Source: Yuukianura sp. NJ FZ-2021 (lineage: Eukaryota). From it: DNA of 64,000 nucleotides. This document shows, piece after piece, positions 4,001-63,737 of the stretch (the first letter of the stretch is position 1; each line of letters starts with the position of its first letter). The translations under genes were made by a program, and so were the position numbers. The stretch covers positions 5,208,001 to 5,272,000 of the forward strand of contig CM102286.1 of NCBI GenBank assembly GCA_046563655.1. Reading direction: 5' to 3'. The notes under the pieces are model-generated. The model made no database searches and was not told the DNA's origin. It saw only the letters and a program-made list of their open reading frames with translations.

Positions 4001-7000
4001 CTTGACCCGTGACCTCTGACCCTTGACCCAGCGTCATCACCTCATCATATCATATCAAACACACGCAAGTGTCATGTCATTCGAAAGCAGAAGTCAAATG
4101 CAGTCGATCGATGTAATGACCTGTCACCTTTGACCTTTGACCTATCGCGGTGACCTCACATAAAATCAAACGAAAAATAGGCATGTGATATATCATTCAA
4201 AAGGGGAGGTGAAATGCAGTTAGGGACATTGACCTGTGACCGTTGACCTTTGATCTATGGCCATGACCCAATAAGTACACACAAACATAGGCCTGTGATA
4301 TATCATTCGAAACAGGCGGTCAAATGGACACTTGGTTTACGTATGTCGCGTTAATTCTATGACCTATGGCACCAAAAAGGAATTAAGTTCCACAGTATAT
4401 GTCTCTCCTCTACATGTTAAACATTAATTGGATGGACGGGTAGTTTTAAGGGATTTCCGCCTGGGCAAAGGGTAGGGTATGATATTTTCATAAAAATAGT
4501 CCAAGCGGGTCAGCATGTATCTCAAACGGGTAGCGGGTTCCCAAAAGTGATACGTTTTTCTGTGTGTGTTCGTATACACTACCACAAAAGCTAGCCCCGC
4601 TTTCACAAGCGGGTATCATACCTTGTATGTTAAATAAAAATTAAAAGCACTAACGTTTTACGTCATTGAATAGCGATTCCGCTTAACAAACGACTTCCTC
4701 TGAATCTGAGCAGCGGAAAACGGAAGTCACATATGAATTCTGCTTTCCCAAAAAAAAATCCCGCCGTTCCACTGCAACTTGTTGCCGGTTGACTGAAGCC
4801 CCTTCCCAGAAACTGAATGAATCCAAAAGCCCTTGCTCTGGTCCCTTCCGGTTGTCTCCATTTCCTGAGTGAAAACCAACAATAGAATCAAGCTAACAAT
4901 ACTTGCAGTATCACACTCTCAGATTTCATCCATTCACTCAAAAATAGTTCCTTTGTTACAAAATTGGGCTAAACCATTCAACAGATTCTGTTTCAGTTCG
5001 TCCCCAAGCAGAATATATTGAGGTGTTGATCGGAAAATAGTATCTGAAAAAGAAATTTTCTTGGGAACTGCTAGGTTAAGGTTGAATCCGTTAGTTTTAA
5101 CCACACAAAACTGACTTTGTTTTTTATTAAGTCGTTGAGGAAGTGAGGCCGGAAGTCAAGAAGACTTTAGGTTAGGTTAAAACTGCGTACGTTAAGGCCT
5201 CGGGAGGAAGCATTTGTCGGTTAGAGTAGAAATTAATGGCAGCCTTAACCCCCTCCTAAGCCTTAGCCGTTCTTCACCTGTTGTAAAATTATTCTTGTTG
5301 GGCTTCCTTCTTCTGTCTCCCTTCAGTTACACTTGAAAATCATGAAGAATTGTCGTCCCCAATTGCAATGTCTTCAACTCGTTTCCGTGGAATCGACACG
5401 AAACGGACCTTAGTTCCCCTCAGTACTTGTGACAATAACCGTGAAGTAATTCAGTTTCATTTGATTTATACGGAACAGATTGTAAGAGAAGTGACTGTAA
5501 CGACGCGGCAAAATTCAAACACGAAACCACCCGCAGACGGAATTCCCTTGAGCAGAAATAACCTCCTTCAAGACAGCACGTTACCGCCAAGAATTCCGAG
5601 TCAAAGCTCGAACACGCTAACGGATGAGCAGAAAGCTGTAAGTATCAATTCAACTTGTCACTTAGCACATGATCCCATAAATTCCAAATCTGCAGGGATT
5701 CAGCGCAACGATGGGGTCATAAGGCACACAAAAGTCAAATTTCCATACCCGTCTAACCTAATCCATAATCCAACGAACATAACTTAACTCACTACTCTAA
5801 GATTCCTCAATTGTCTCCAGGGGGTAAATTATAAATTGTGATGTCTTTCGAGCCAAATTTCAAAATTATCTTTTCAAGAAAAACCGCAATTTTTTCCAGA
5901 AACTTGTTTAAAATGAGTTCTTTTGCAAGTTAAATGGGAGTTTAAATTGTCGGGGGACTAAATTTATTACGGTGTATTGTTTTTTAAACAAAAGGAAAAC
6001 ACGGTAATATACTTTGCAATGTTTGGCAATCTTTGTTACAGAAGTAAATATTTGCCACAATGGATTTGGCCAGAACATAGTTTTTACTTATTTTTTGTTT
6101 TAAATGTTTTTGACAAATTTTATTGGCGGTAATCAGAAACCATATTTTAAGTACGTTTTTTTGTTGCAGTTGACGCTTGATAGTTGCACAGCAAAAGTGA
6201 TTCAACAAAAACTGTTTGCAGACCCAACGCAGACAATACGACGTCGCAATAGTTTGGATCTCCAAAAATTTATTCAGGTAAATTTTTTTTTGTAAAAAAA
6301 AAAAAACATAAATTCTGCCAACGTACAGTGCTTTTCGCTATGAAACGCGAGGACGAAAGTGTCGAAATTAAATTTCGACATGAAAGTTACTTAAGTGAAC
6401 TGTTTTCAAAAAATTCTTTTGATTCTGGGCTAGTTACTCACGTATTGTAGTAGAATTTTGGGTTGGATATATTTGGTAAAAATTTAATAGGTTTTTGCAG
6501 ATTTAATTAAAAGATAAATGGACCAAATTTCCAAAGTTAGGAATCAATTGTCAAGATTAATCAAAAGACTTCAACGTCTGTATAAGGCAAATCCACTCAC
6601 CCTACACTATCATTATGAAAAATGGATTTAGTATCAACTTTTAACATAGAAAGATTTCAAACTGAAGATGAGATTTGAAACAATGGAAAACCAGTAATTA
6701 AGGACTGTAGATGGAGGTAGATAAACCTACTTCTAGAGTCACACACAAAGTAAATTGGAAATAGGGGTCGAAATTCGTCGTGGTTTTGCCCAGATCCGAA
6801 TCCCGAATCTATCCGAATCTGATCTCGGCAAAATCCGAATCCGGATTCGGATCTCATTTTTTAAAGAAATTCGCCCTTACATAATAGAAATTAAAAAATA
6901 ACACTTTTATTTATGATTGAACACTAACTACCCGTTTATGTTGAGTTTGTTTTCTAAAGTAAAAAGTATTGAAACTAAGTAGTAAAGACTACGACTCTCG

Positions 7001-13000: not shown

Positions 13001-16000
13001 GTGGAATGCAAATCCCGCATGCAATGTCAAAAAAAGTTCTTTCTTATTGGAAACTCGGTATAGCCCAGAACATTATTTTTTTGAATTTAACATTTAACGA
13101 AGTTTTTAAATTCATTTTAGCTCCTTTAATAGATTCCAAACATTTAACTTAATTTGCAAGTGAATTATTATTCATATGAATTAATTTTATTAATGTTTGT
13201 ATTCTTTGCTGGAGTTCTCTTGGAGAAGTCCAACTATCAGCGTTCGTAGTAACGCTAGTCGTCGTGGTCATAGTCGTCAGTTTCATCCCAATAAAGTTCA
13301 CCCGTATCCTCCGGGCTGTAGCGGTCATCGTCATGGCCATAACCTCTGTCATGGTCGTGTCTTCTGTCGCCATGACCGTGCTCTCCCGACGAATACCGCT
13401 CTCCGCTATATCTGCCTCGGCCACCACGTCTGCCGGCTTGACATGCCCGTCGACATTTCCTCTTTGACCTGTAGTTGTTTCCATTTCCACCGCAGCCCAA
13501 GTAGCGAAAACGCATGCAACTTCCACTCCCTGCCTCGTAGTACCACCTTGTCCTCCGCCTAGCGCCACATCTTTCTCCACGGTCTACTTCGCTGTAACAG
13601 TCCTCGTTTCCACCTAAACGTCAAAGTATTTTGACATTTGACATGTTGATATGTGACATTTAGGCTTAAAAAGTGCACGGAATTACCCGTCTCGTCAACA
13701 ACGTGTTCCGAAGTGCGGGAGAAGTTGAGAGGATTGATTCTCGGATTCTCTAGTATCTTTGCTGTTCCATTCTTTACGCTGACCACTCCCAGTATTACGT
13801 CATTGTCACCTAAACACATAGTAATTCATGCTTAAATGTTCAAGCGTGGTTTCAAAATGACTTTTTAACTAAATTGTTGTAAATTATGTAAAGGTGATTT
13901 CGGTACCTCTGTCGTCTTCTGAACCTTTGATGACGTCAAGGGGAGTCCCTGCCTCAGAGGTTGACCACGTCAAAATCGCTGCACCTAAAATTAGTAACCC
14001 GAAAAGTTGCGCCATTGCACTCCCAGTACCAACTGTAGAACTTTTTTTTTTCAAAGTACATTTTTGAGCGCGGCAATCTCCAAACACTGGAAATTTATGA
14101 CGTTACGAAACGTCAGAAAATGAACCACAAACAATACCTCCATTAAGGGTTTTATTGTCGTTGCTTTGAGTATGCGCAACTGAAGGACAAGAAGCAAGGT
14201 CGATACAAAATTCATAACGTTTAATCTGCTTTCTAGTAAAAATTATTATAAAATACCCACTTAAAATAAGAAAGTATAAAAATTTAATTGTTTACGTTAC
14301 CCTAAATCCTGGCGTATAGCCCGAGGGTTATGCGCCAGAATTTAGGGTATATTTAATTGCTCCAATTTTTTCTATTTCTAGGCAACGATTCCGAATGGGT
14401 GGACATCGTTGAGCCAGAAATCCGCCAAATCCTTGAACTGGAGCGTCTGAAAAAAGCGGGAAAGTTGACAACTTCGGAAGTACAAAATGCTGGGAATGTT
14501 TTGCATCCAGGTCAATCCAGAAGGTCAACTGTCAACAGTGAAGCCATGAGTTCATCCCATTCCACTGACAAAACCAAGGAAAACGGCCTACACGATCCTG
14601 CCATCATCGAGTCCTCCCCAAAACTCCCAAAGAAATTTGATCTCAGTTGTTCCAAGTGAGTTAAATGCTGAATTTCTGCTTAAGCCTTGTTATTTTCCTC
14701 CATAAATCTGTGAGTAATTTAAGCTGATTCATGGGATGAGGAAGATGAAGATCTAGAGGGAGGCAATGTCTCAATTTCTCAAATGATAAAAGACTTCCCG
14801 CTGATTTCTGCTTTTTTCGTGCACTGCTAACGATGTATCCATCTTCTCTTTTCTTCTTATTAGCAAAAAATCGAGTCATGAAGTTCTGCCAGGGTCAAGC
14901 ACTGGTCAAGGTCCTTCGCCAGTCCACTCCCCTCAAAAGTCGAAGGCTACAAAGCTGCCTTCGTCTCTTCTGCGTTCCAACTCTGGAGCAGGTCAAAGGT
15001 CAAATCCGTGGGCAACCTCGTCAAGACAAAAGCTTCTTTTGAATGACAAGGGCAAGGCGGCAACAGTTGGACGGAAAGATCTCGTTAGTCATACCAAGGC
15101 TGGGAAGCTCACGCGTAATGCCATGAGTAAGTGACCTTTTGACCCTTGAGAAATATTCGCAGTAAAGTGTACGTGACGCATGAGTTTTTGCTTCCATTTT
15201 TAGCCAAGTTCATTTTCCTATTGATTTTGGTTGGTTTCTAATATTTCAAAGTACTTCCAAACATAATTCATTTTTGTAAAAATTATCAATAATTTTTTAC
15301 ACAAAAAATGCATTTCCGAAAGTGTCGCAAAAAGCTTCAAGATGAAACAGTTACATTTTTTTCTCCGGGCAGGTCAAATATTGTATTCATTGAATGATGA
15401 TGCTGGTGACATGACCTCGACAACTGGAGGGCTGGATTTGGAGTCGATGCTGGACGGAAGAGGAGACAACAGCTCAGAAGATGACGATTTAAGTACAACC
15501 ATCGACACAACCGATGCTCACGCCATCCGGAGGCAGCTCGAAAGTCTTGAAACTATGTATACAGAGGTAACTCTCAAAAAGATTTCCACTATGAATTCAA
15601 TTAATCTTCATCTTCTGAGCATCTATTTAATTAACGTAGGTACTGAAAGCTCTGGGAGGAAAGAAACAAATGACGGGATCACGACATCCTCCACCAGTAT
15701 CATCAGACTTGAGGCATTCCAGGCGACGCCCCTATGGTAGCATGTCCTCCCTCCCAAGCTCCGTTAGCAGTCGACCTTTCAGAGAAAGCAGGAAGAGAAT
15801 TGAAGAAAAGAAGAAGGTCAAGGACATCAAGGTAAACCAGTTTTTAAAAATGCCGCTTTTTTGTTTCCTTCCATGAATTCAAACGCATATCCGGAAATAT
15901 TTAACCGAATTTTCGAACTGCTTTAGTTTCAGTGGTTTTCCTCGCGGTAGAAAAATGCCACCTCAGTTTAATGTAATGTAATTCTTTCCAACTGAAATTA

Positions 16001-47285: not shown

Positions 47286-49733
47286 ATGAGTCGACTTGTG
47301 AGACAATTACCAAAGGTAAGGTTCATTTTCGTTTCTTTAAACCGGTAAAGTCGACAGATTGGATTTCAAAATTTCAAAGGCTTAATCCAGTGACGCTAAC
47401 TACGATCGTAGATGTTTGCTATTTTGGTAATGATTTGGTTTTTTTGGATTGACTTTACAGGTCCAAGGGAGCGTCAGGGTACCCAAGGTCCATGGCAGAT
47501 TTTATTCCCCACCAGCTGTGGCAAATACAAAGTTATTCATCAATGGGAAGTTCGTGGAATCACAAACGAAGGAATGGATCGACCTTCACAACCCGGCGAC
47601 AAATGACCTTGTCACGCGTGTACCAAAGGCAACGCAAAGTGAAATGTCAGATGCCACAGAAGCTGCCAAAGACGCTTTTAAGACTTGGTCAAAGACTTCG
47701 ATTCTCTCACGTCAACAAATCATGTTCAAATTCCAGCACATCATCAAAGCAAACATGGTAAGACAAAATGTCATAGTTCGAGATAATCAAGCGTACGATT
47801 CTGACCAAATTTTTCTTTTTTTTAGCAAGAGCTGGCCAAGAACATTACACTGGAACAAGGGAAAACCTTGATTGATGCCGAGGGAGACGTTTTGAGAGGC
47901 CTCCGTAAGTTCAATTGTTTATGAATCAAACTCAATTTGAAATAATCATGAATTAAACGTTCTGAATTTATGTTGCAGAGGTCGTGGAACACTGCTGCAG
48001 CGTCCCCAGTCTACAACTAGGAGAAACTCTGTCTGGAATTGCAAAGGACATGGACACATTATCATACCGTGTACCACTCGGTGTCTGTGCAGGAATAACC
48101 CCGTTCAATTTCCCGGCGATGATCCCACTATGGGTAAGTAGAAGCCTGTTTTCGATATTTCCCGTACCCGGACATTGATTTCGTTTTCTTCACTATGTAA
48201 TTCCTTTACTATTTTACAGATGTTCCCATTGGCTCTTACTTGTGGAAACACTTATGTTATCAAACCATCAGAGAGAGATCCCGGAGCCTGTATGATGCTT
48301 ATGGAAATGTTCCAGGAAGCGGGTATGAAAATGAAACCCATATTTGACCAAAAGTGCCAATAATTTCCAATAATTTGTCCATTTTTTTCAGGAGCACCAA
48401 ACGGTGTCGTCAACGTCATTCACGGAGCTCATGAAGCCGTCAACTTTATTTGTGATCATCCGGCAATCAAAGCGATTTCCTTTGTTGGATCCGACCAGGC
48501 CGTAAGTTGCATTTAAAGAAAAGCTAAAGTCAGTGTTACATGATGTAACTTTTACATCTTCTAAAGTGCTCAGAGTGAACGTTTTGATATATTTTTTAGG
48601 GAAAATACATCTACGAAAGAGGATCCAAAAATGGGAAACGTGTGCAAAGCAACATGGGTGCTAAGAATCACGGAGTCATAATGCCAGATGCCAACAAAGA
48701 AAATACTTTAAATCAACTGGTCGGAGCTGCCTTTGGAGCTGCTGGACAGCGATGCATGGCTCTCAGCACGGCCGTATTCGTCGGAGAAGCTAAAGAGTGG
48801 ATACCTGAATTAGTCGAGAAGGCTAAACGGCTCAAAGTGAATGCTGGTACGAAATACTTTTTACAAGTTCAGTTTCAATTGCAATACTCGTCCGATTCTA
48901 TATTTTTTATCTTAACTTTTCAGGACATGAACCTGGAACTGATTTAGGTCCAGTCATCTCACCGCAAGCGAAGCAACGAATCTTAGAATTGGTTGAGTCA
49001 GGAATTCAAGACGGTGCTCATTGCCTCTTGGACGGTCGTAACGTCAAAGTTCCAGGTTATGAAAAAGGCAACTTTGTTGGCCCAACAGTCTTGGCCGATG
49101 TCACTGTAAGTCGTTAAAAACAACAAATGATGTTGAAAGCTTATTCCAACTGAAGATATCGACCTTCTTTACTGACTATATTTAGCCAAAGATGAAATGC
49201 TACACGGAAGAAATCTTCGGACCGGTTTTAATTACTGTCTCAGTTGACTCTCTTGATGATGCAATTACTCTCATTAACAACAACCCATACGGAAATGGAA
49301 CCGCCATTTTTACAACTAACGGTAAGCTTTAAGCAAATATTAAAGTTATCCTACCCTATCAATTATTCTGATTGTTAACAAAGCATTTTATGGACATTTT
49401 ACATTTCTGAACTTTATTTTAGGCGCCACCGCTCGTAAATTTACGCATGAAATTGATGTTGGACAAGTTGGTGTTAACGTGCCTATTCCAGTTCCACTCC
49501 CCATGTTTTCATTCACGGGTTCCCGCGGAAGTTTCATGGGCGACACAAACTTTTATGGAAAAGCCGTAAGTTTTTACAGGCTTAACATTTTATTGATCGC
49601 ATTTTTATATTGAAACGTTTTTGTTCTTAAGGGAATCAACTTCTACACTCAAATCAAGACTGTGACGCAAATGTGGCGAGAAGGTGACGCAACCATTTCC
49701 AAGCCCACTGTAGCCATGCCAGTGATGCGATAG
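47286..49733 (+). CDS. ALDH6A1: Methylmalonate-semialdehyde dehydrogenase (acylating), mitochondrial
   Basis: Multi-exon. Motifs [35 protein letters not shown], catalytic [18 protein letters not shown] and [12 protein letters not shown]; Arg-rich N-terminal transit peptide. Confidence 0.97.
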
Positions 49734-50083
49734 ATTTATGATCTGAAATTGGAGCATATTCTATGCAGTACATTGGTATCGAACGCAGTTGTAAATCACG
49801 AGAGCAATTATATTTATAGTACATGAGCCGCTACCAATTCCATCCCATTCGAAATTCTTCATTTCTTTAAAAGTCAGAGCAAAGGTGCTATTCAGTTGCC
49901 AAAATTTTTATTAAATCAAAGTCAGCAAAGCAACATTTAGTAATTATTTTATTCCACCCAATTCGTAACAGTTTGAACACAAAAAAGTTGAAGCTGAACA
50001 GAAGTTTATGTTAGGGAGCAGAGAGTTTAGAATATTAATATCTAAACAAATATTGAAATTGCTAAAAATTACAAAAGTTTTGG

Positions 50084-51199
50084 CTAAAAACTGGATTCTT
50101 TGAAAGCGATTTCTTCCCTTTCAGGCGGCGTATGACCCCCAACAGTTTTTGATTGTTTGTAATCATAGCTTTCTGTTTTTCGTTTTTGAATATGAATTAC
50201 TTTTACGGCACGAGGATGACGAGTAGCCAGTAGTTTGTTGACTGTTTCTGCGTCACTTGTTTTTTCATGCTCTGGCTCTTTGTCCGGCATTTGTACTGGA
50301 TCCATTGCACTTAGCGGTGTTGGCGTCCTTCGTGGTGGTCTTGACGGTGACACAATGGTGGAAGGTGACGGTTGTCCAAAAAGTTGTTTCGAGGCTTGTC
50401 GGAGCCTTTCGGCCGAAAGTGGTTGGTCATCCTCAGTAGGACTTTCAGGCAATGGCTTCCGTTGTGTTTCGGGTGACCTAGTGACCGTTTTGCTTTCTTC
50501 GTATTCTTCCGTTTTGTATGCAAACCTCTTAGGAGGTGCTAAGTCGTAGGTGCGAACTAAATATGGAAATCTTGCAATTTCAGGTTTTTCGGGCGGCAGG
50601 GGCTTCCGAGATCCTGCTGCAGGCAATGTCAGTGATTTTTCATACTGATCTTCAGCTGAAGTTTCAGTATGCTCAGTTATTTCTTTATCGAATGCTTGAT
50701 GCCTTTGATGAGATTGCTCATATAAATCTGATTTTGGTAGCAGTGCGGCTGTTGCTGTTGGAGACGTTGCTGGAGACTCTGGACCTGGTTTGCTGGACTT
50801 TGTATTTGAAAATCTGTCAAACAGCCTGGAAGTGAGGACTTGTTTGTCGTCGGGCGGAGAATGCGATGCGGATTTGTGAAACGATGGTGGTGTGCCGTCT
50901 CTGTCGAGATATCTCCCGTCCGGTCCAGGCGAGTATGAGCGTGACAAGTATCCAAGATCTCTGTCATCTTCTTCAAATGGTGACGGAGCCAGTAGAGAAG
51001 AGAGGTGCTGAGATAGAAGTTGATCTGACGGTGCAGTTGCATCAGGAGCCAACCGAGTTCCTGGAGCACTGGATTGTTGTACCTTGTCGTCGTTTCTGAC
51101 ATTCAAATGGGATGGACGAGGCGGCCGGGGCAATTCCTCGGGAGTGAATACTTGCGAAGTATTTGTGGACTCCTGAGACCCTGTCCCGGCGGCTAATTG
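50084..51199 (-). CDS. Putative stop-codon-readthrough extension of the claudin (371 codons, Pro/Ser/Thr-rich, ends ESSF)
   Basis: In frame with the claudin TGA (51202-51200), with no stop until 50086-50084. No in-frame ATG occurs until near the end. The stop context is TGA-CAA-TTA. Confidence 0.75.
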   Translation of the reverse strand, partial: QLAAGTGSQESTNTSQVFTPEELPRPPRPSHLNVRNDDKVQQSSAPGTRLAPDATAPSDQLLSQHLSSLLAPSPFEEDDRDLGYLSRSYSPGPDGRYLDRDGTPPSFHKSASHSPPDDKQVLTSRLFDRFSNTKSSKPGPESPATSPTATAALLPKSDLYEQSHQRHQAFDKEITEHTETSAEDQYEKSLTLPAAGSRKPLPPEKPEIARFPYLVRTYDLAPPKRFAYKTEEYEESKTVTRSPETQRKPLPESPTEDDQPLSAERLRQASKQLFGQPSPSTIVSPSRPPRRTPTPLSAMDPVQMPDKEPEHEKTSDAETVNKLLATRHPRAVKVIHIQKRKTESYDYKQSKTVGGHTPPEREEIAFKESSF

Positions 51200-51202
51200 T
51201 CA
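51121..51202 (-). promoter_or_regulatory. Candidate readthrough signal: UGA-CAA-UUA plus 3' stem-loop
   Basis: The mRNA strand reads TGA CAATTA GC-C-GCCGGG-A-CAG-GGT-CTC-A-GGAGT-CCACA-AATACTT-cgc-AAGTATT-C-ACTCC-C-GAG-GAA-TTG-C-CCCGGC-C-GC, with nested complementary blocks. Confidence 0.7.
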
Positions 51203-52355
51203 AGCTTTCTTGGGGTAACCTAAAATACCCCTGGGGGAGGGGGATCTCAATTCGTAAGAGCCTGTGCGAGACAAACGTTCTCGGCGACGCCATTGAATTG
51301 ACGCTTCAATTAAAAAGAAGATTCCAGCGATATGGAGTAGAACGACACCTACGACTGCGCAGACATATGCCCAGGCCAAGTCATTAAACTGCCACTCTGG
51401 TGCCCACACGCGGCTTGCGCTAAGTGTCCCAAAGACTATGACGGCCACTGACCCGAGAAGACCTGGATTCAACAGCGATTGGCAAAATATCAATTTTGAA
51501 AAAAAAAAAAAATTTGAAAATTTTAAATTTACTGTTGATTACCCGCCATTTCGATGAGCATTCCAGTGACGATGAGGTAATGCACCAGTCCGGAATCTGC
51601 TTCCGAAAATTTTGCCAAGTATGCAATCACCATGAACAAGCAAATCATTGCAGTTACGAAGCAGAGGGCGTAGCTTATTTGAACAGGAACTAAAAACGCT
51701 GCAAAAATTCAAACATAAAATTCAGATTTGAACAGGAAGTAAAAACGCTGCAAAAACTAAAACATGAAATTCAGATTTGAACAGGAGTTGAAAACACTGC
51801 ATTCCAAACAGATTCAGATTTGAACAGGAGCTAAAAACACTGCAAAAATTCAAACAGAAAATTGGTTTAAAAAACTCTCTTTTTCAGGAAATGCAGATGC
51901 AGAAACTGCGCACGCAATTTCCGACCTATCAGAAAATTTGCTGTGACTTTTTTTGTCCTTTGTCAAACATCAAAGTTCGAAAACTTGTTGAAATTTTGCA
52001 TAAGTGACTTAATTACTTTCGAAACAGCTTTTTTCTTACCGGGCAGAATGAATTCGCGGATGTCGTTGTAAGTGACCGTGATCGGGTAGTAGATCCATCG
52101 ACATCCTTCATAGCCTCCGGTCAAGTAGGGGTCATAGTAGTACGGGTCATGGATCAACTTGTAGCAGCTCATCCATAAACCCAGTTTTTGAAATTTAGAT
52201 GAACTTGGCGCCTTGTCTTCATCCACAACCAGCCAATCAGGAGCCACCATTCCAATGAAAATGATGAGAAACGCCACCATGAAGATGACCGTGGCAATGT
52301 AGGCAACAATGGAACGACCTCCGCCGCATCCGGATGCATTTGAATGGCTATCCAT
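51200..52355 (-). CDS. Invertebrate claudin-family tetraspan protein (kune-kune/sinuous/pickel-like), 244 aa to the first stop
   Basis: Exons 52355-52040, 51698-51543, 51462-51200. Four hydrophobic segments, the claudin W...GLW-x2-C...C signature (PDWL...KLGLWMSC...EGCRW) and second-loop WAPEWQFNDLAWAY. Confidence 0.9.
51678..51863. repeat. Tandem 49-bp repeat (~4 copies) duplicating the claudin exon-2 splice acceptor
   Basis: Units start at 51678, 51727, 51776 and 51819 (TTTGAACAGGAx...CTGCAAAAATTCAAACA). Confidence 0.9.
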
Positions 52356-53201
52356 GCTAAGGTCAATGTGAACTTTTTATACAAAATTTAATAATGTGAA
52401 TTTTTGGATTTGCAGCACATTTAAACTATTTTTTGTAGCTACATGGTTTCCTTATGTGACTCGAGCAGCAACTACCTGCAGACTGAATGTAAGGTGATGA
52501 AAGTTAAAGTATGGGGATGTAAAAATTAAGATTTAAAGTTAAACCTACTCTTCAGCACTTTAGCTAACCCCCGATTCTGTTTTGACTTAAATGGAGGCGT
52601 CGTTAGGTGGAATAAGCACACAAAGCTAAGGCGGAGTCCTAAGAGGTGATGCATAACAATTCTAAACGCTAATTGTGTTTTGTTTAAGCTGTTGGATGAC
52701 CTGTGTTTCGAATGTGACTCATAACTTAATAGTCTCCAAATTATAGTCTGTTTATTGATTAGTCTTAAGTGATTGGATTCTTTCAGATTTTAATTACTTG
52801 AAGGCCAAGACTCATTAACTTTGGTTGTGTTTTATTTTTGTAACGCCGAAATCTGCATTTTAGGATGATGACAAATTTTTCAACTGCAAATTCAGTCCAA
52901 TTTTGCTTCAAATGATTTATTCTACTTATTTCGAAATTTTGAAACTCAACGTTTCCTTTTGAAGGAGTGACTCATTTGAGACGCGTAAAGTCACCCGCAT
53001 CTTTAAATATTTTTAGTTTCCAAAAAGTCCTTGGACGATGCTTACTTAACACTCCAATGTTGAAGTAAAAATTAAACTTAAAATATTCAACAGGTAATTC
53101 ATGACTCATGAGAAACCAGAGTCTTCATCACTAAAAATAGACGATTCAACGTTTTCTCGTCAAAACTCGATGTTTTACAATTCCAGTTACTAAAAAGTCA
53201 A

Positions 53202-53821
53202 TAGCTTGTTTCAAATAAAGCGATTATAATCGCTTTTCAGATTAATCTGCCAAGTCAGATTAATCTGAGGTGGTGCGCAGGCGCAGTGCGCCACTTTTTG
53301 GATTATAATCGGCCAAAAAAGAATCCACAAAAACCACGATTCTCTTGGATTAATCTGCTCCCTCCACCCGACCATCACCACCCACTGTTGTTATTTTTGA
53401 AATTTTCAATTCCCGCCCTTCCACATCAGCTGACAATCGGCCGAAAAAATCGAGTACACTCAAATTAATCGATTATAATCCAAGCCGGGTTAATCCGCGG
53501 AGGATTATAATCTTTTATTTGAAACAAGCTATTAATCTGCCAAGTCAGATTAATCTGAGGTGGTGCGCAGGCGCAGTGCGCCACTTTTTGGATTATAATC
53601 GGCCAAAAAAGAATCCACGAAAACCACGATTCTCTTGGATTAATCTGCTCCCTCCACCCGACCATCACCACCCACTGTTGTTATTTTTGAAATTTTCAAT
53701 TCCCGCCCTTGCACATCAGCTGACAATCGGCCGAAAAAATCGGATACACTCAAATTAATCGATTATAATCCAAGCCGGGTTAATCAGCGGAGGATTATAA
53801 TCTTTTATTTGAAACAAGCTA
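53202..53821. mobile_element. MITE-like element with internal 290-bp tandem duplication including the right TIR
   Basis: Left TIR TAGCTTGTTTCAAATAAA at 53202; right TIR TTTATTTGAAACAAGCTA ends at both 53531 and 53821. 53241-53530 is nearly identical to 53531-53820. Internal GATTATAATC/GATTAATC palindromes are present. The flanks AAAGTCAA and ATATTCAA may be a decayed 8-bp TSD. Confidence 0.8.
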
Positions 53822-62500: not shown

Positions 62501-63737
62501 TTGTTCACGTTGTGTCAGGTGAGATGCAACTAATTAACTTTAATAAAACTGAAAACTATTCGTTATAATCAAAAATTAACTTAACTCGTTACAACAGATC
62601 CAAAAGAGTAAACAGTTTTAGGCGGGATGTCAAACCAACGCGCAATTTCGAGCAGGGTTCGTCACTTTAGGACCCCAGTAGCAAAAGCTTACCACCCAAA
62701 TCCCGCTAAATTTTTCGAACGCCCTGTAGAATCTTTCGGTGGCCGCAGGCCACCGAAGATTCTAGTCTATTTTATATTACAAAATCTCTAACACAGTCCT
62801 CCTGTCCTCTGTGTGTGAGTGAAATGAGAGTTAACTCCTGGCTCTCTTATTCACTTTGTGTGAACAGCAGCAAAATATAAACAGTTAACTCTCACTCAAG
62901 CACAGGAGGACAAGAAGCTATATGTCGTAGTGGTCTTCTAATTCACTCTCTTCATAATCTCTCTCCCAATAGCGAATCTACCCTCCGCTGCACGCATGAC
63001 AATTTTGTACAAACAACGGTTGAAATAAACTAAATATTGGATAACTGTACCCAACATTTGTTTTTATCCCGTCTTTTTGTAAATTTAACTATTGGGTAAT
63101 CGTTTTTTGTGCGATTAGTCAGTCAAACTGATACGTACGCAACAGTCTAGAATCTTTCGGTGGCCGTAGGCCACCGAAGATTCTAGTTGTATCACATCGT
63201 ACCTCCTCTGTCAGAAGTTTGTGGAGTTCGATTTTACAATCTTCCATTCTCATTTTGTCTGCACTATCAACGACCCAAACTAATCCATCGGTACTTTCAA
63301 AGTAATTCCGCCAGTAAGATCGCAAACTTTTTTGACCGCCAACGTCCCAAATGTTTAGTTGAAAACTGAAATGAAGTAAGTTAAGTAAGCGAGGATTAAA
63401 CTGTTAACATGTTAGATTTGATAATTTTGGAACAAAACTCACCCTTTGTGTTCCAAAGATTTAATGTTAAATCCTAAGGTTGGTGAAATATCGTAGATAT
63501 CTTCTCCGTTAAATTTTTTCCAGATTGTAGTTTTGCCAGCATTATCTAATCCGCTGAAAAAACGAAGAAATGTTGAGTCCGTATACCATAGTACAAGTTA
63601 CTTACAATGCAGTGTCAACAATTATACGGTCTGTTCGAAGTGCAAAGTACTAAAATATCAAAGAAAACTTACAGCATAAGGATCCGCACCTCCTTTTCTT
63701 TTTGCTTCAACTTTTTCAAAATTTTTAGCAACCCCAT
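59541..63737 (-). CDS. Arl2: ADP-ribosylation factor-like protein 2
   Basis: Exons 63737-63673, 63553-63442, 63366-63203, 59857-59777, 59675-59541. Sequence includes [66 protein letters not shown] and [10 protein letters not shown]. Confidence 0.97.
60692..61854 (-). CDS. DD41D transposase, two coding exons (~366 aa)
   Basis: Exons 61854-61048 and 60985-60692 (CGG|gttagt...caatag|GAC). Motifs [13 protein letters not shown] and [12 protein letters not shown]. After splicing there are 41 residues between the second and third Asp. Confidence 0.9.
61883..62217. repeat. 49-bp minisatellite (~7 copies) inside the transposon, upstream of the transposase ATG
   Basis: Unit CAAATTCAGGTACTTTAAATCAGAAATCTCATTATACCCCATATTAAGT starts at 61883, 61932, 61981, 62030, 62079, 62128 and 62177. 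Confidence 0.97.
62766..63186 (+). mobile_element. Non-autonomous Helitron-like element copy 2 (intact)
   Basis: Begins with TC directly after the CTAG of copy 1. Ends with the palindrome CTAGAATCTTTCGGTGGCC-gta-GGCCACCGAAGATTCTAG|T. Confidence 0.85.

Follow-up and report, generated by a model that had tools for sequence, protein, structure and literature searches.

The 64,000-nucleotide stretch of DNA analysed here (the window) is from Yuukianura sp. NJ FZ-2021 (assembly GCA_046563655.1, contig CM102286.1, positions 5,208,001 to 5,272,000 of the forward strand), and carries on its minus strand a claudin-superfamily gene of three exons, with a product of ~245 residues. The claudin frame ends at a UGA that is followed directly by the hexamer CAAUUA and then by an extended RNA stem-loop of 73 nucleotides (nt), and the frame beyond the UGA stays open for a further 371 codons; together these features would form a programmed stop-codon readthrough cassette. 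Exon 3 matched the Pfam family Claudin_2 (PF13903) with 34.5 bits, above the curated cut-off of 29.1, and exon 1 alone scored just under that cut-off (27.6 bits, expect value (E) 2.9e-6). The full-length claudin-like protein of Folsomia reached 86.9 bits against the same profile. The only named relative found for exon 1 was the Folsomia candida protein XP_021950046.1, with 62% identity over 82% of the query, a match that on the basis of this one gene points to a springtail-like arthropod as the most likely source. The frame of exon 2 was consistent both with the Folsomia protein P0004 and with the homologous metagenomic locus L001 described below. When exon 1 and the Folsomia protein were used as queries in word-based searches, the Folsomia cluster alone was returned, and no insect orthologue was identified. 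A Pfam scan of the extension gave no domain match. The first methionine of the extension is residue 299, and separate initiation at an AUG therefore cannot produce its conserved part.

Relatives of the extension were found among predicted proteins and in metagenomes. A search with the extension returned P0001 (E 3e-112, 61% identity), P0002 (E 6e-75), and P0003 (E 4e-37), and only P0002 and P0003 were recovered when a profile was searched against 1.84 billion representative proteins. In a scan of metagenomes, 112 pattern matches led to two loci, L001 and L002, and the corresponding scans of assembled genome contigs and of viral contigs gave no match in either set. At both loci exon 3 runs into one in-frame TGA, followed by CAATTA, as in the window, and the frame then remains open (371 sense codons in the window, 339 in L001, and 362 in L002) up to homologous C-termini (KESSF, RESSF, and KESCF, respectively), which are closed by TAG, TAG, and TAA. 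Comparisons at the DNA level were made among these three sequences, and Folsomia was compared as protein only. The proportion of synonymous differences (pS) among the three was 0.74-0.90, which is saturated, with values of 0.74-0.81 in the extension. The proportion of nonsynonymous differences (pN) in the extension was 0.20-0.37, close to that of the claudin exon (0.22-0.26), and the two alternative frames of the extensions contain 9-24 stops. A single TGA conserved in all three sequences and followed by a long, constrained open frame is a signature of recoding, and we regard readthrough as such as probable.

Public gene models mishandle the locus in several ways. P0001, which is encoded at L001 (5420-7020), shows a tryptophan at the position of the window's TGA, where its own DNA reads TGA, and the model runs through an intron. 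Since the same gene call reads other TGAs as tryptophan inside clear intron sequence, this residue is a gene-calling artefact. In Folsomia (models P0005 and P0006), RefSeq places two genes at the locus. The claudin-like protein ends in ...GEKA, at a point judged to correspond to the ...PKKA of the window (the printed C-termini were compared by eye, with no alignment), and the downstream open reading frame, named 'formin-like protein 20', shares the C-terminal motif of the extension (hhalign probability 95%, E 3.5e-8; BLASTP E 0.001). An older Folsomia annotation, OXA57735.1, fuses the claudin and the extension by means of a predicted intron.

Table 1. Coordinates of the features discussed, in positions of the window; the opposing arms of the basal helix P1 are listed separately.
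Feature	Position	Strand	Remarks
Exon 1	52040..52355	-	ATG at 52355-52353, donor GT at 52039-52038; read from the sequence and its open reading frames
Exon 2	51543..51698	-	Phase 1 at both ends; splice sites read from the sequence
Exon 3, claudin part	51203..51462	-	Stops at the codon before the TGA; C-terminus ...GYPKKA
In-frame UGA, proposed readthrough stop	51200..51202	-	Sole in-frame stop before the homologous C-terminus in all three DNA orthologues
CAAUUA hexamer, CARYYA-type leaky context	51194..51199	-	Identical in the window, L001, and L002
Extended stem-loop, 73 nt	51121..51193	-	Minimum free energy fold
P1 basal helix, 5' arm, GCCGGG	51185..51190	-	Begins 9 nt past the UGA; pairs with 51129-51124
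Apical 7-bp stem AAUACUU/AAGUAUU with CGC loop	51147..51163	-	Minimum free energy fold and inverted-repeat scan
P1 basal helix, 3' arm, CCCGGC	51124..51129	-	Within Pro-Arg-Pro codons
Putative readthrough extension, 371 codons, ending ...KESSF	50087..51199	-	Open frame
TAG, second stop, closing the extension	50084..50086	-	

The stop codon and its 3' neighbourhood are conserved at the nucleotide level. Across TGA CAA TTA GCC G(C/T)C GGG, 17 of 18 positions are identical in all three sequences, and the hexamer is kept in all of them despite the saturation of synonymous sites. In two 20-codon windows at the stop, residues identical between the window and L001 were encoded by identical codons in 7 of 12 and 7 of 10 cases, and in the comparison with L002 in 8 of 8 and 4 of 4, against gene-wide fractions of 0.41 and 0.37, respectively. 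The nonamer TGACAATTA occurs twice in the window, where shuffled sequence gave a mean of 1.26 and two or more copies in 41 of 100 shuffles, so that its frequency by itself carries no significance; what gives the 9-mer weight is that it is conserved at the stop site. The hexamer fits the CARYYA consensus in all three sequences, and the stop is UGA rather than the UAG of the tobamoviruses.

A second zone of raised synonymous identity was seen at the C-terminal motif VKVIHIQKRKTESYDYKQS (alignment columns 450-489, window ~50087-50250, minus strand), with identical codons in 15 of 20 cases against L001 and in 11 of 18 against L002, and could represent another RNA element or a strong codon preference. 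A smaller zone, at columns 330-359, was seen against L001 only (10 of 14).

The UGA might also be bypassed by splicing, with CAATTAG acting as the acceptor either of a short in-frame intron, whose donor would lie upstream, or of a direct junction with exon 2, in which case the hairpin might regulate the choice. The junction of the predicted intron in OXA57735.1, as deduced from the protein only, is consistent with a CAATTAG acceptor. In-frame GT...CAATTAG intervals are present in the window (36 nt), in L001 (30 nt), and in L002 (57 nt), and YTGAC resembles the branch-point consensus. However, introns of 30-36 nt are shorter than usual animal introns, and the in-frame GT positions near the stop are not homologous, leaving no donor conserved among the window, L001, and L002. 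The only donor common to two species sits in a membrane-span segment and is absent from L002, and the CAATTAG acceptor is without a pyrimidine tract, unlike the real acceptors of this gene. In addition, the RefSeq models of Folsomia give two genes and not a spliced isoform, and splicing leaves unexplained why the TGA specifically, and all six bases of the hexamer, should be under selection. A spliced bypass of the UGA is therefore considered improbable, and a readthrough stop remains the preferred reading of the conserved TGA.

The stem-loop beyond the hexamer was folded with RNAfold on the mRNA strand (51193..51121), and gave -30.9 kcal/mol (z -3.74), with none of 200 dinucleotide shuffles as stable. 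The minimum free energy (MFE) fold consists of the helices GC/GC, GCCGGG/CCCGGC, CAG/UUG, UCUC/GAGG, GGAGU/ACUCC, and AAUACUU/AAGUAUU, capped by a CGC loop. The pairings that the original prediction had listed by eye proved to be exactly these helices, save that its CTC/GAG is really a four-pair helix with one U-G pair. Its statement that the stem-loop starts 6 nt after the UGA holds for the 73-nt fold as a whole but not for the conserved helix (P1), which begins 9 nt after the UGA, the outer GC/GC pairs being peculiar to the window. The arms of the hairpin were the only long inverted-repeat pair reported within 50900-51400 (501 bases). As had also been claimed, the hairpin is markedly GC-rich for this window, with a GC fraction of 0.616 compared with 0.35-0.44 in 2-kb windows of the 64 kb. 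A scan of both strands of the 64 kb showed that 34 of 25,572 73-nt windows reach -30.9 kcal/mol, the best 25 of them coming from five loci.

The excess stability was also seen against coding controls. None of 1000 synonymous-codon resamples, in which the peptide was kept and codons were drawn according to the gene's own usage, was as stable as the window's hairpin, and 17 of 1000 synonymous permutations within the region were; no other 75-nt window of the same open reading frame (0 of 128) reached this stability. A folding energy no better than that of shuffled sequence would have counted against the original prediction, and the fold instead outdoes dinucleotide shuffles and synonymous resamples. 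In a 152-nt context the z score was -2.98 (2 of 200 shuffles as stable), and in a 403-nt context the pairs of P1 had probabilities of 0.99-1.00. A search of Rfam found no family at the hairpin up to E 10 (49000-53500), and none at the gathering score across the window.

A stem-loop of the same architecture was found in L001 (-29.1 kcal/mol, z -3.66, 0 of 200 shuffles as stable), and P1 begins 9 nt past the UGA, at the same codon positions, in all three sequences. Its 5' arm lies in the second of two Ala/Val codons and in the Gly codon, and its 3' arm in codons for Pro/Ala-Arg-Pro. A three-way MAFFT nucleotide alignment misplaced the 3' arm of L002, and P1 was accordingly compared by codon position from separate folds. 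With the GCCGGG/CCCGGC of the window as reference, L001 has GCCGGG/CUCGGC, in which one G-C pair has become G-U, and L002 has GUCGGG/CCCGAC, in which one C-G pair has become U-A through changes on both sides. Thus, pair 5 is C-G, C-G, and U-A, and pair 8 is G-C, G-U, and G-C, in the window, L001, and L002, respectively. RNAalifold analysis of the window and L001 gave 22 shared pairs, with one double-sided change (G-C to A-U), two one-sided changes, and no broken pair. Altogether two double-sided and three one-sided pair-preserving changes were counted among the three sequences. The apical part has been remodelled: L001 keeps six pairs of the apical stem and has a 3-nt deletion, and in L002 the stem is absent and a much larger insert is present. 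Differences between the window and L001 fall in 4 of 44 paired columns compared with 13 of 23 unpaired columns (Fisher p 5e-5), a contrast that is supportive rather than decisive, the consensus structure being derived from the same sequences. Third codon positions were identical in 13 of 16 paired cases and in 1 of 6 unpaired cases.

Covariation and conservation among orthologues had been named beforehand as checks on the hairpin, and both came out in its favour: TGA, CAATTA, and stem-loop lie at the same place in L001 and L002, and pair-preserving changes occur in the two orthologues, although this evidence is thin with three sequences. Synonymous resamples were as stable as the native sequence in 1 of 1000 cases for L001 and in 9 of 1000 for L002, and no other same-length window of the respective open reading frames was as stable (0 of 121 and 0 of 106). 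These results bear on the possibility that the fold is a by-product of the peptide and of local GC content, with no function at the RNA level. The region does encode partly conserved residues (QLAAG, TSQVF, and PRP), the comparison is among three sequences, and the antisense fold of the window equals or surpasses the sense fold. A by-product would not be expected, however, to outperform peptide-keeping codon resamples in all three sequences, nor to accumulate its differences outside the paired columns, and L002, whose peptide differs considerably and which has gained a large stretch of sequence, retains P1 through a compensatory change. A by-product is thus highly improbable, and the hairpin is very probably a selected RNA structure.

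Several observations weigh against a conserved hairpin that stimulates readthrough. In L002 the first 86 nt past the hexamer show no excess fold (z 0.05), and the 136-nt stem-loop of that locus (-43.2 kcal/mol, z -3.38, 0 of 200 shuffles as stable) was delimited after CCCGAC, ~120 nt downstream, had been spotted as complementary to GUCGGG. In the 403-nt context the P1 pairs of L002 have probabilities of 0.47-0.60, and the MFE fold pairs the arm upstream instead. A scan not fitted to the structure, at seven lengths, ranked the post-hexamer window first of 436 only at 75 nt, the structure's own length, and 7-32 at the six other lengths. The same scan gave rank 1 of 405 for L001 at the structure's own length (27-127 at six others). 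The span chosen for L002 nevertheless came first among 403 at 135 nt in this unfitted scan, and fifth among 398 at 150 nt (5-122 at the six lengths other than 135). With three DNA orthologues, the case for covariation comes down to two double-sided changes. The Pro-Arg-Pro codons that contain the 3' arm of P1 are themselves conserved, and selection on the protein may account for some of the conservation of that arm. Stem-loops are also not always effective elsewhere: SACM1L and ACP2, with predicted stem-loops, showed little readthrough (PMC4132726), and the stem-loop candidates worm C18B2.6 and some from flies likewise gave little in heterologous assays. A conserved hairpin is therefore no guarantee of stimulation. 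Finally, the plus strand of the window folds better at the hairpin than the mRNA strand does (-40.9 kcal/mol, z -5.1), and no other 73-nt segment on either strand of the 64 kb is as stable as this plus-strand fold.

The orthologues help to decide which strand carries the conserved feature. The antisense fold decays, with z -2.61 in L001 (3 of 200 shuffles as stable) and -1.32 in L002 (22 of 200), whereas the sense z scores are kept in all three (-3.74, -3.66, and -3.38 in the window, L001, and L002). Moreover, the G-U pair in P1 of L001 becomes an A-C mismatch on the opposite strand. Together, these observations place the conserved feature on the mRNA strand. They also bear on the proposal that the hairpin is a miRNA-like small-RNA precursor transcribed from the plus strand, antisense to the gene. 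Such a precursor would fit the plus-strand fold that tops the 64 kb, but it does not fit the decay of that fold in the orthologues, where the sense fold stays significant, nor the lack of any Rfam match at the hairpin up to E 10; its chances are of the faintest.

The proximity of a stable duplex to the UGA raises the further possibility that adenosine-to-inosine editing converts UGA to UGG (Trp), with the local double-stranded RNA as substrate. The three bases of the UGA are predicted to be paired with probabilities of 0.82, 0.88, and 0.16 in the window, and of 0.88, 0.87, and 0.82 in L001. The UGA lies outside P1, however, and pairs with short upstream stretches that differ among the species; its pairing in L002 is weak (0.28-0.54), and editing leaves the conserved CAAUUA unexplained. 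Editing is accordingly given a very slim chance, and the mRNA-strand hairpin is discussed below as a candidate stimulator of readthrough.

Stem-loops located 7-9 nt past the stop, in which the base of the stem is conserved and the loop varies, were described by Firth et al. 2011 (PMC3159437) in alphaviruses, furoviruses, beet necrotic yellow vein virus (BNYVV), kelch, and headcase, and the parallel drawn in the original prediction with structures a few nt 3' of the stop is borne out by that account for alphaviruses and headcase. As presented there, kelch and headcase are the closest in kind to the locus described here: both are cellular arthropod genes in which a long coding extension, itself conserved, lies beyond a single stop, and both have a stem ~8 nt past the stop, of which the basal part is conserved and the loop varies in size and sequence. 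Unlike the present locus, they have UGA-AUG (kelch) and UAA (headcase) and are given without CAAUUA, their loops are 268 and 52 nt long, respectively, and they belong to gene families unrelated to the claudin locus. Their readthrough has been demonstrated experimentally, whereas that of the present locus is predicted from sequence.

Viral signals supply the other half of the comparison. The Type II signals of Venezuelan equine encephalitis virus (VEEV) and Sindbis virus (SINV), like the present locus, have UGA then C, a spacer of 8-9 nt, and an extended stem-loop with a variable loop. The alphavirus stem is of 11-12 bp with a bulge (PMC3159437), and in VEEV the stem-loop raises readthrough by 10- to 14-fold (Firth et al. 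2011, PMC3159437). They differ in belonging to a viral replicase gene, in having natural hexamers of the CGG or CUA types, and in a loop of ~100 nt. When CAAUUA was swapped in after the UGA of VEEV and combined with its stem-loop, readthrough in cells was 10.1% (PMC3159437). This artificial construct has the arrangement seen here, and is the only combination of CAAUUA, UGA, and extended stem-loop in the literature passages covered. The BNYVV coat protein gene also has CAA-UUA directly after the stop, a 9-nt spacer, and a local stem-loop, but it is a plant virus gene with a UAG stop, and its stem, of 12 nt with an 8-nt loop, is short, in contrast to the extended and interrupted stem of the present locus. 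The tobamovirus Type I signal, UAG-CAA-UUA, shares its six bases with the present hexamer, but differs in its UAG and in being described without an extended 3' structure.

These systems also bear on the alternative that UGA-CAAUUA drives readthrough by itself and that the hairpin is otherwise employed, for instance in the binding of a regulator, in mRNA localisation or stability (the region being 3'UTR whenever ribosomes stop at the UGA), or as a tissue-specific switch acting with a trans factor. In human cells CARYYA after the OPRL1 stop gave ~15% readthrough; all six bases of the hexamer mattered, and UGA was equal to UAG in efficiency in the CARYYA context (Loughran et al. 2014, PMC4132726). 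The motif after UGA would thus suffice for ~15% in the absence of any structure (PMC4132726), tobamoviruses and pomoviruses with the hexamer are described as having no extended structure (PMC3159437), and the weak heterologous readthrough of stem-loop candidates led the authors to propose trans factors. On the other hand, P1 stands at the same 9-nt spacing in all three sequences, in line with the 7-9 nt of validated and predicted stimulators, and in BNYVV, which has the same hexamer, readthrough is lowered by deletion of codons +3 to +34 with the hexamer intact (PMC3159437). The hexamer acting alone is thus unlikely, and a contribution from both elements is preferred.

A downstream stem-loop in a cellular gene is also known from SEPN1, whose conserved redefinition element lies 6 nt past the UGA. 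Its likeness to the present arrangement suggests that the UGA could encode selenocysteine, with the hairpin as a SEPN1-like element, the more so in that the SEPN1 stem-loop stimulates readthrough even without a selenocysteine insertion sequence (SECIS; PMC3159437). SEPN1, however, acts together with a SECIS and inserts selenocysteine, and Rfam searches gave no SECIS match in the window (gathering score), in 49000-53500 (E up to 10), or in L001 and L002 (E up to 1), the SECIS models of Rfam being used rather than a dedicated SECIS tool. The linker that contains the UGA is, moreover, variable and has neither a Cys nor a redox motif close by, and no homologue with Cys in place of the UGA was seen. 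Selenocysteine insertion is thus scarcely credible here. The results weaken, without eliminating, splicing, selenocysteine, editing, and membership of a known RNA family as explanations.

The preferred explanation is that this three-exon claudin-superfamily gene, of a springtail-like arthropod, carries a programmed readthrough cassette in its mRNA. Termination at the UGA would be the usual outcome, yielding the ~245-residue protein with four membrane spans. Some ribosomes would instead read the UGA with a near-cognate tRNA and translate the 371 codons of the extension, giving an isoform of ~615 residues whose long cytoplasmic tail bears conserved motifs. Two cis elements would make this more frequent: the CAAUUA hexamer that adjoins the UGA, of the CARYYA type found in tobamoviruses, and the extended stem-loop with its conserved 6-bp basal helix. 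With a spacing of 9 nt, that helix would stand approximately at the mRNA entrance of a ribosome that holds the UGA in its A site. The locus would thus combine a Type I hexamer with a Type II-like stem-loop, and in its sequence features it falls within the readthrough class on every count. The bipartite signal of hexamer plus hairpin that was originally proposed is supported to this extent, in that the fold beats its controls and the TGA, hexamer, and stem-loop are kept in two orthologues. We infer both the occurrence of readthrough and its stimulation by the hairpin, and favour, with some reservation, the joint claim that both take place.

Some additional features of these sequences were recorded. 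Intron 1 contains a 49-nt tandem repeat (51677-51863, minus strand; 3.9 copies, 79% match), the units of which, on the gene strand, each copy the acceptor and the start of exon 2 (...tttgcag|cgttttta.ttcctgttcaaat...). Since the repeat units carry the acceptor, the real 3' splice site of intron 1 is preceded by a series of decoy or alternative ones. Other strong 73-nt folds in the window are located at ~63111-63220 (both strands, -39.7 kcal/mol), 14276-14370 (plus strand, -37.6), 53226-53310 (plus strand, -33.1), and 6781-6853 (minus strand, -32.7); the fold near 63131, present on both strands, is like a plain inverted repeat. The most stable L001 windows at lengths of 90-150 nt lie ~690-800 nt past the TGA (e.g., -57.9 kcal/mol at 150 nt). 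Just past the end of the extension, L001 7235-7309 (plus strand) matched mir-4637 with 30.2 bits, compared with a gathering score of 89 (E 0.019), and this match is probably due to chance.

Abundant functional readthrough has been reported through comparative genomics, mainly in flies and mosquitoes. In the literature library searched, readthrough in springtails or in Folsomia was the subject of no paper, and a search on readthrough, claudin, and Drosophila found nothing relevant by title or abstract, the supplementary candidate lists from flies and mosquitoes lying beyond its scope. The present locus offers a clean, testable case of putative readthrough in an early-branching hexapod lineage. 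It is also a natural experiment on the hexamer and a downstream helix acting together, as the basal helix has been kept and the apical part remodelled between species. A bolder proposal, which we put forward tentatively and with more doubt than confidence, is that a natural cellular gene joins CAAUUA after UGA with an alphavirus-like stem-loop to give efficient (at least 10%), possibly regulated readthrough, that the resulting cytoplasmic tail exceeds the core protein in length and has a possible PDZ-binding end, and that Collembola as a whole, with the Folsomia lineage among them, have kept the arrangement since a deep divergence. The tail ends in -S-x-F/I, which we take to be a possible PDZ-binding motif class. 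Recognition of readthrough would correct the Folsomia models, with their invented intron and their two genes, as well as the metagenome model in which TGA is read as Trp. Should the long isoform exist, its large tail could link the claudin-like protein to scaffold proteins.

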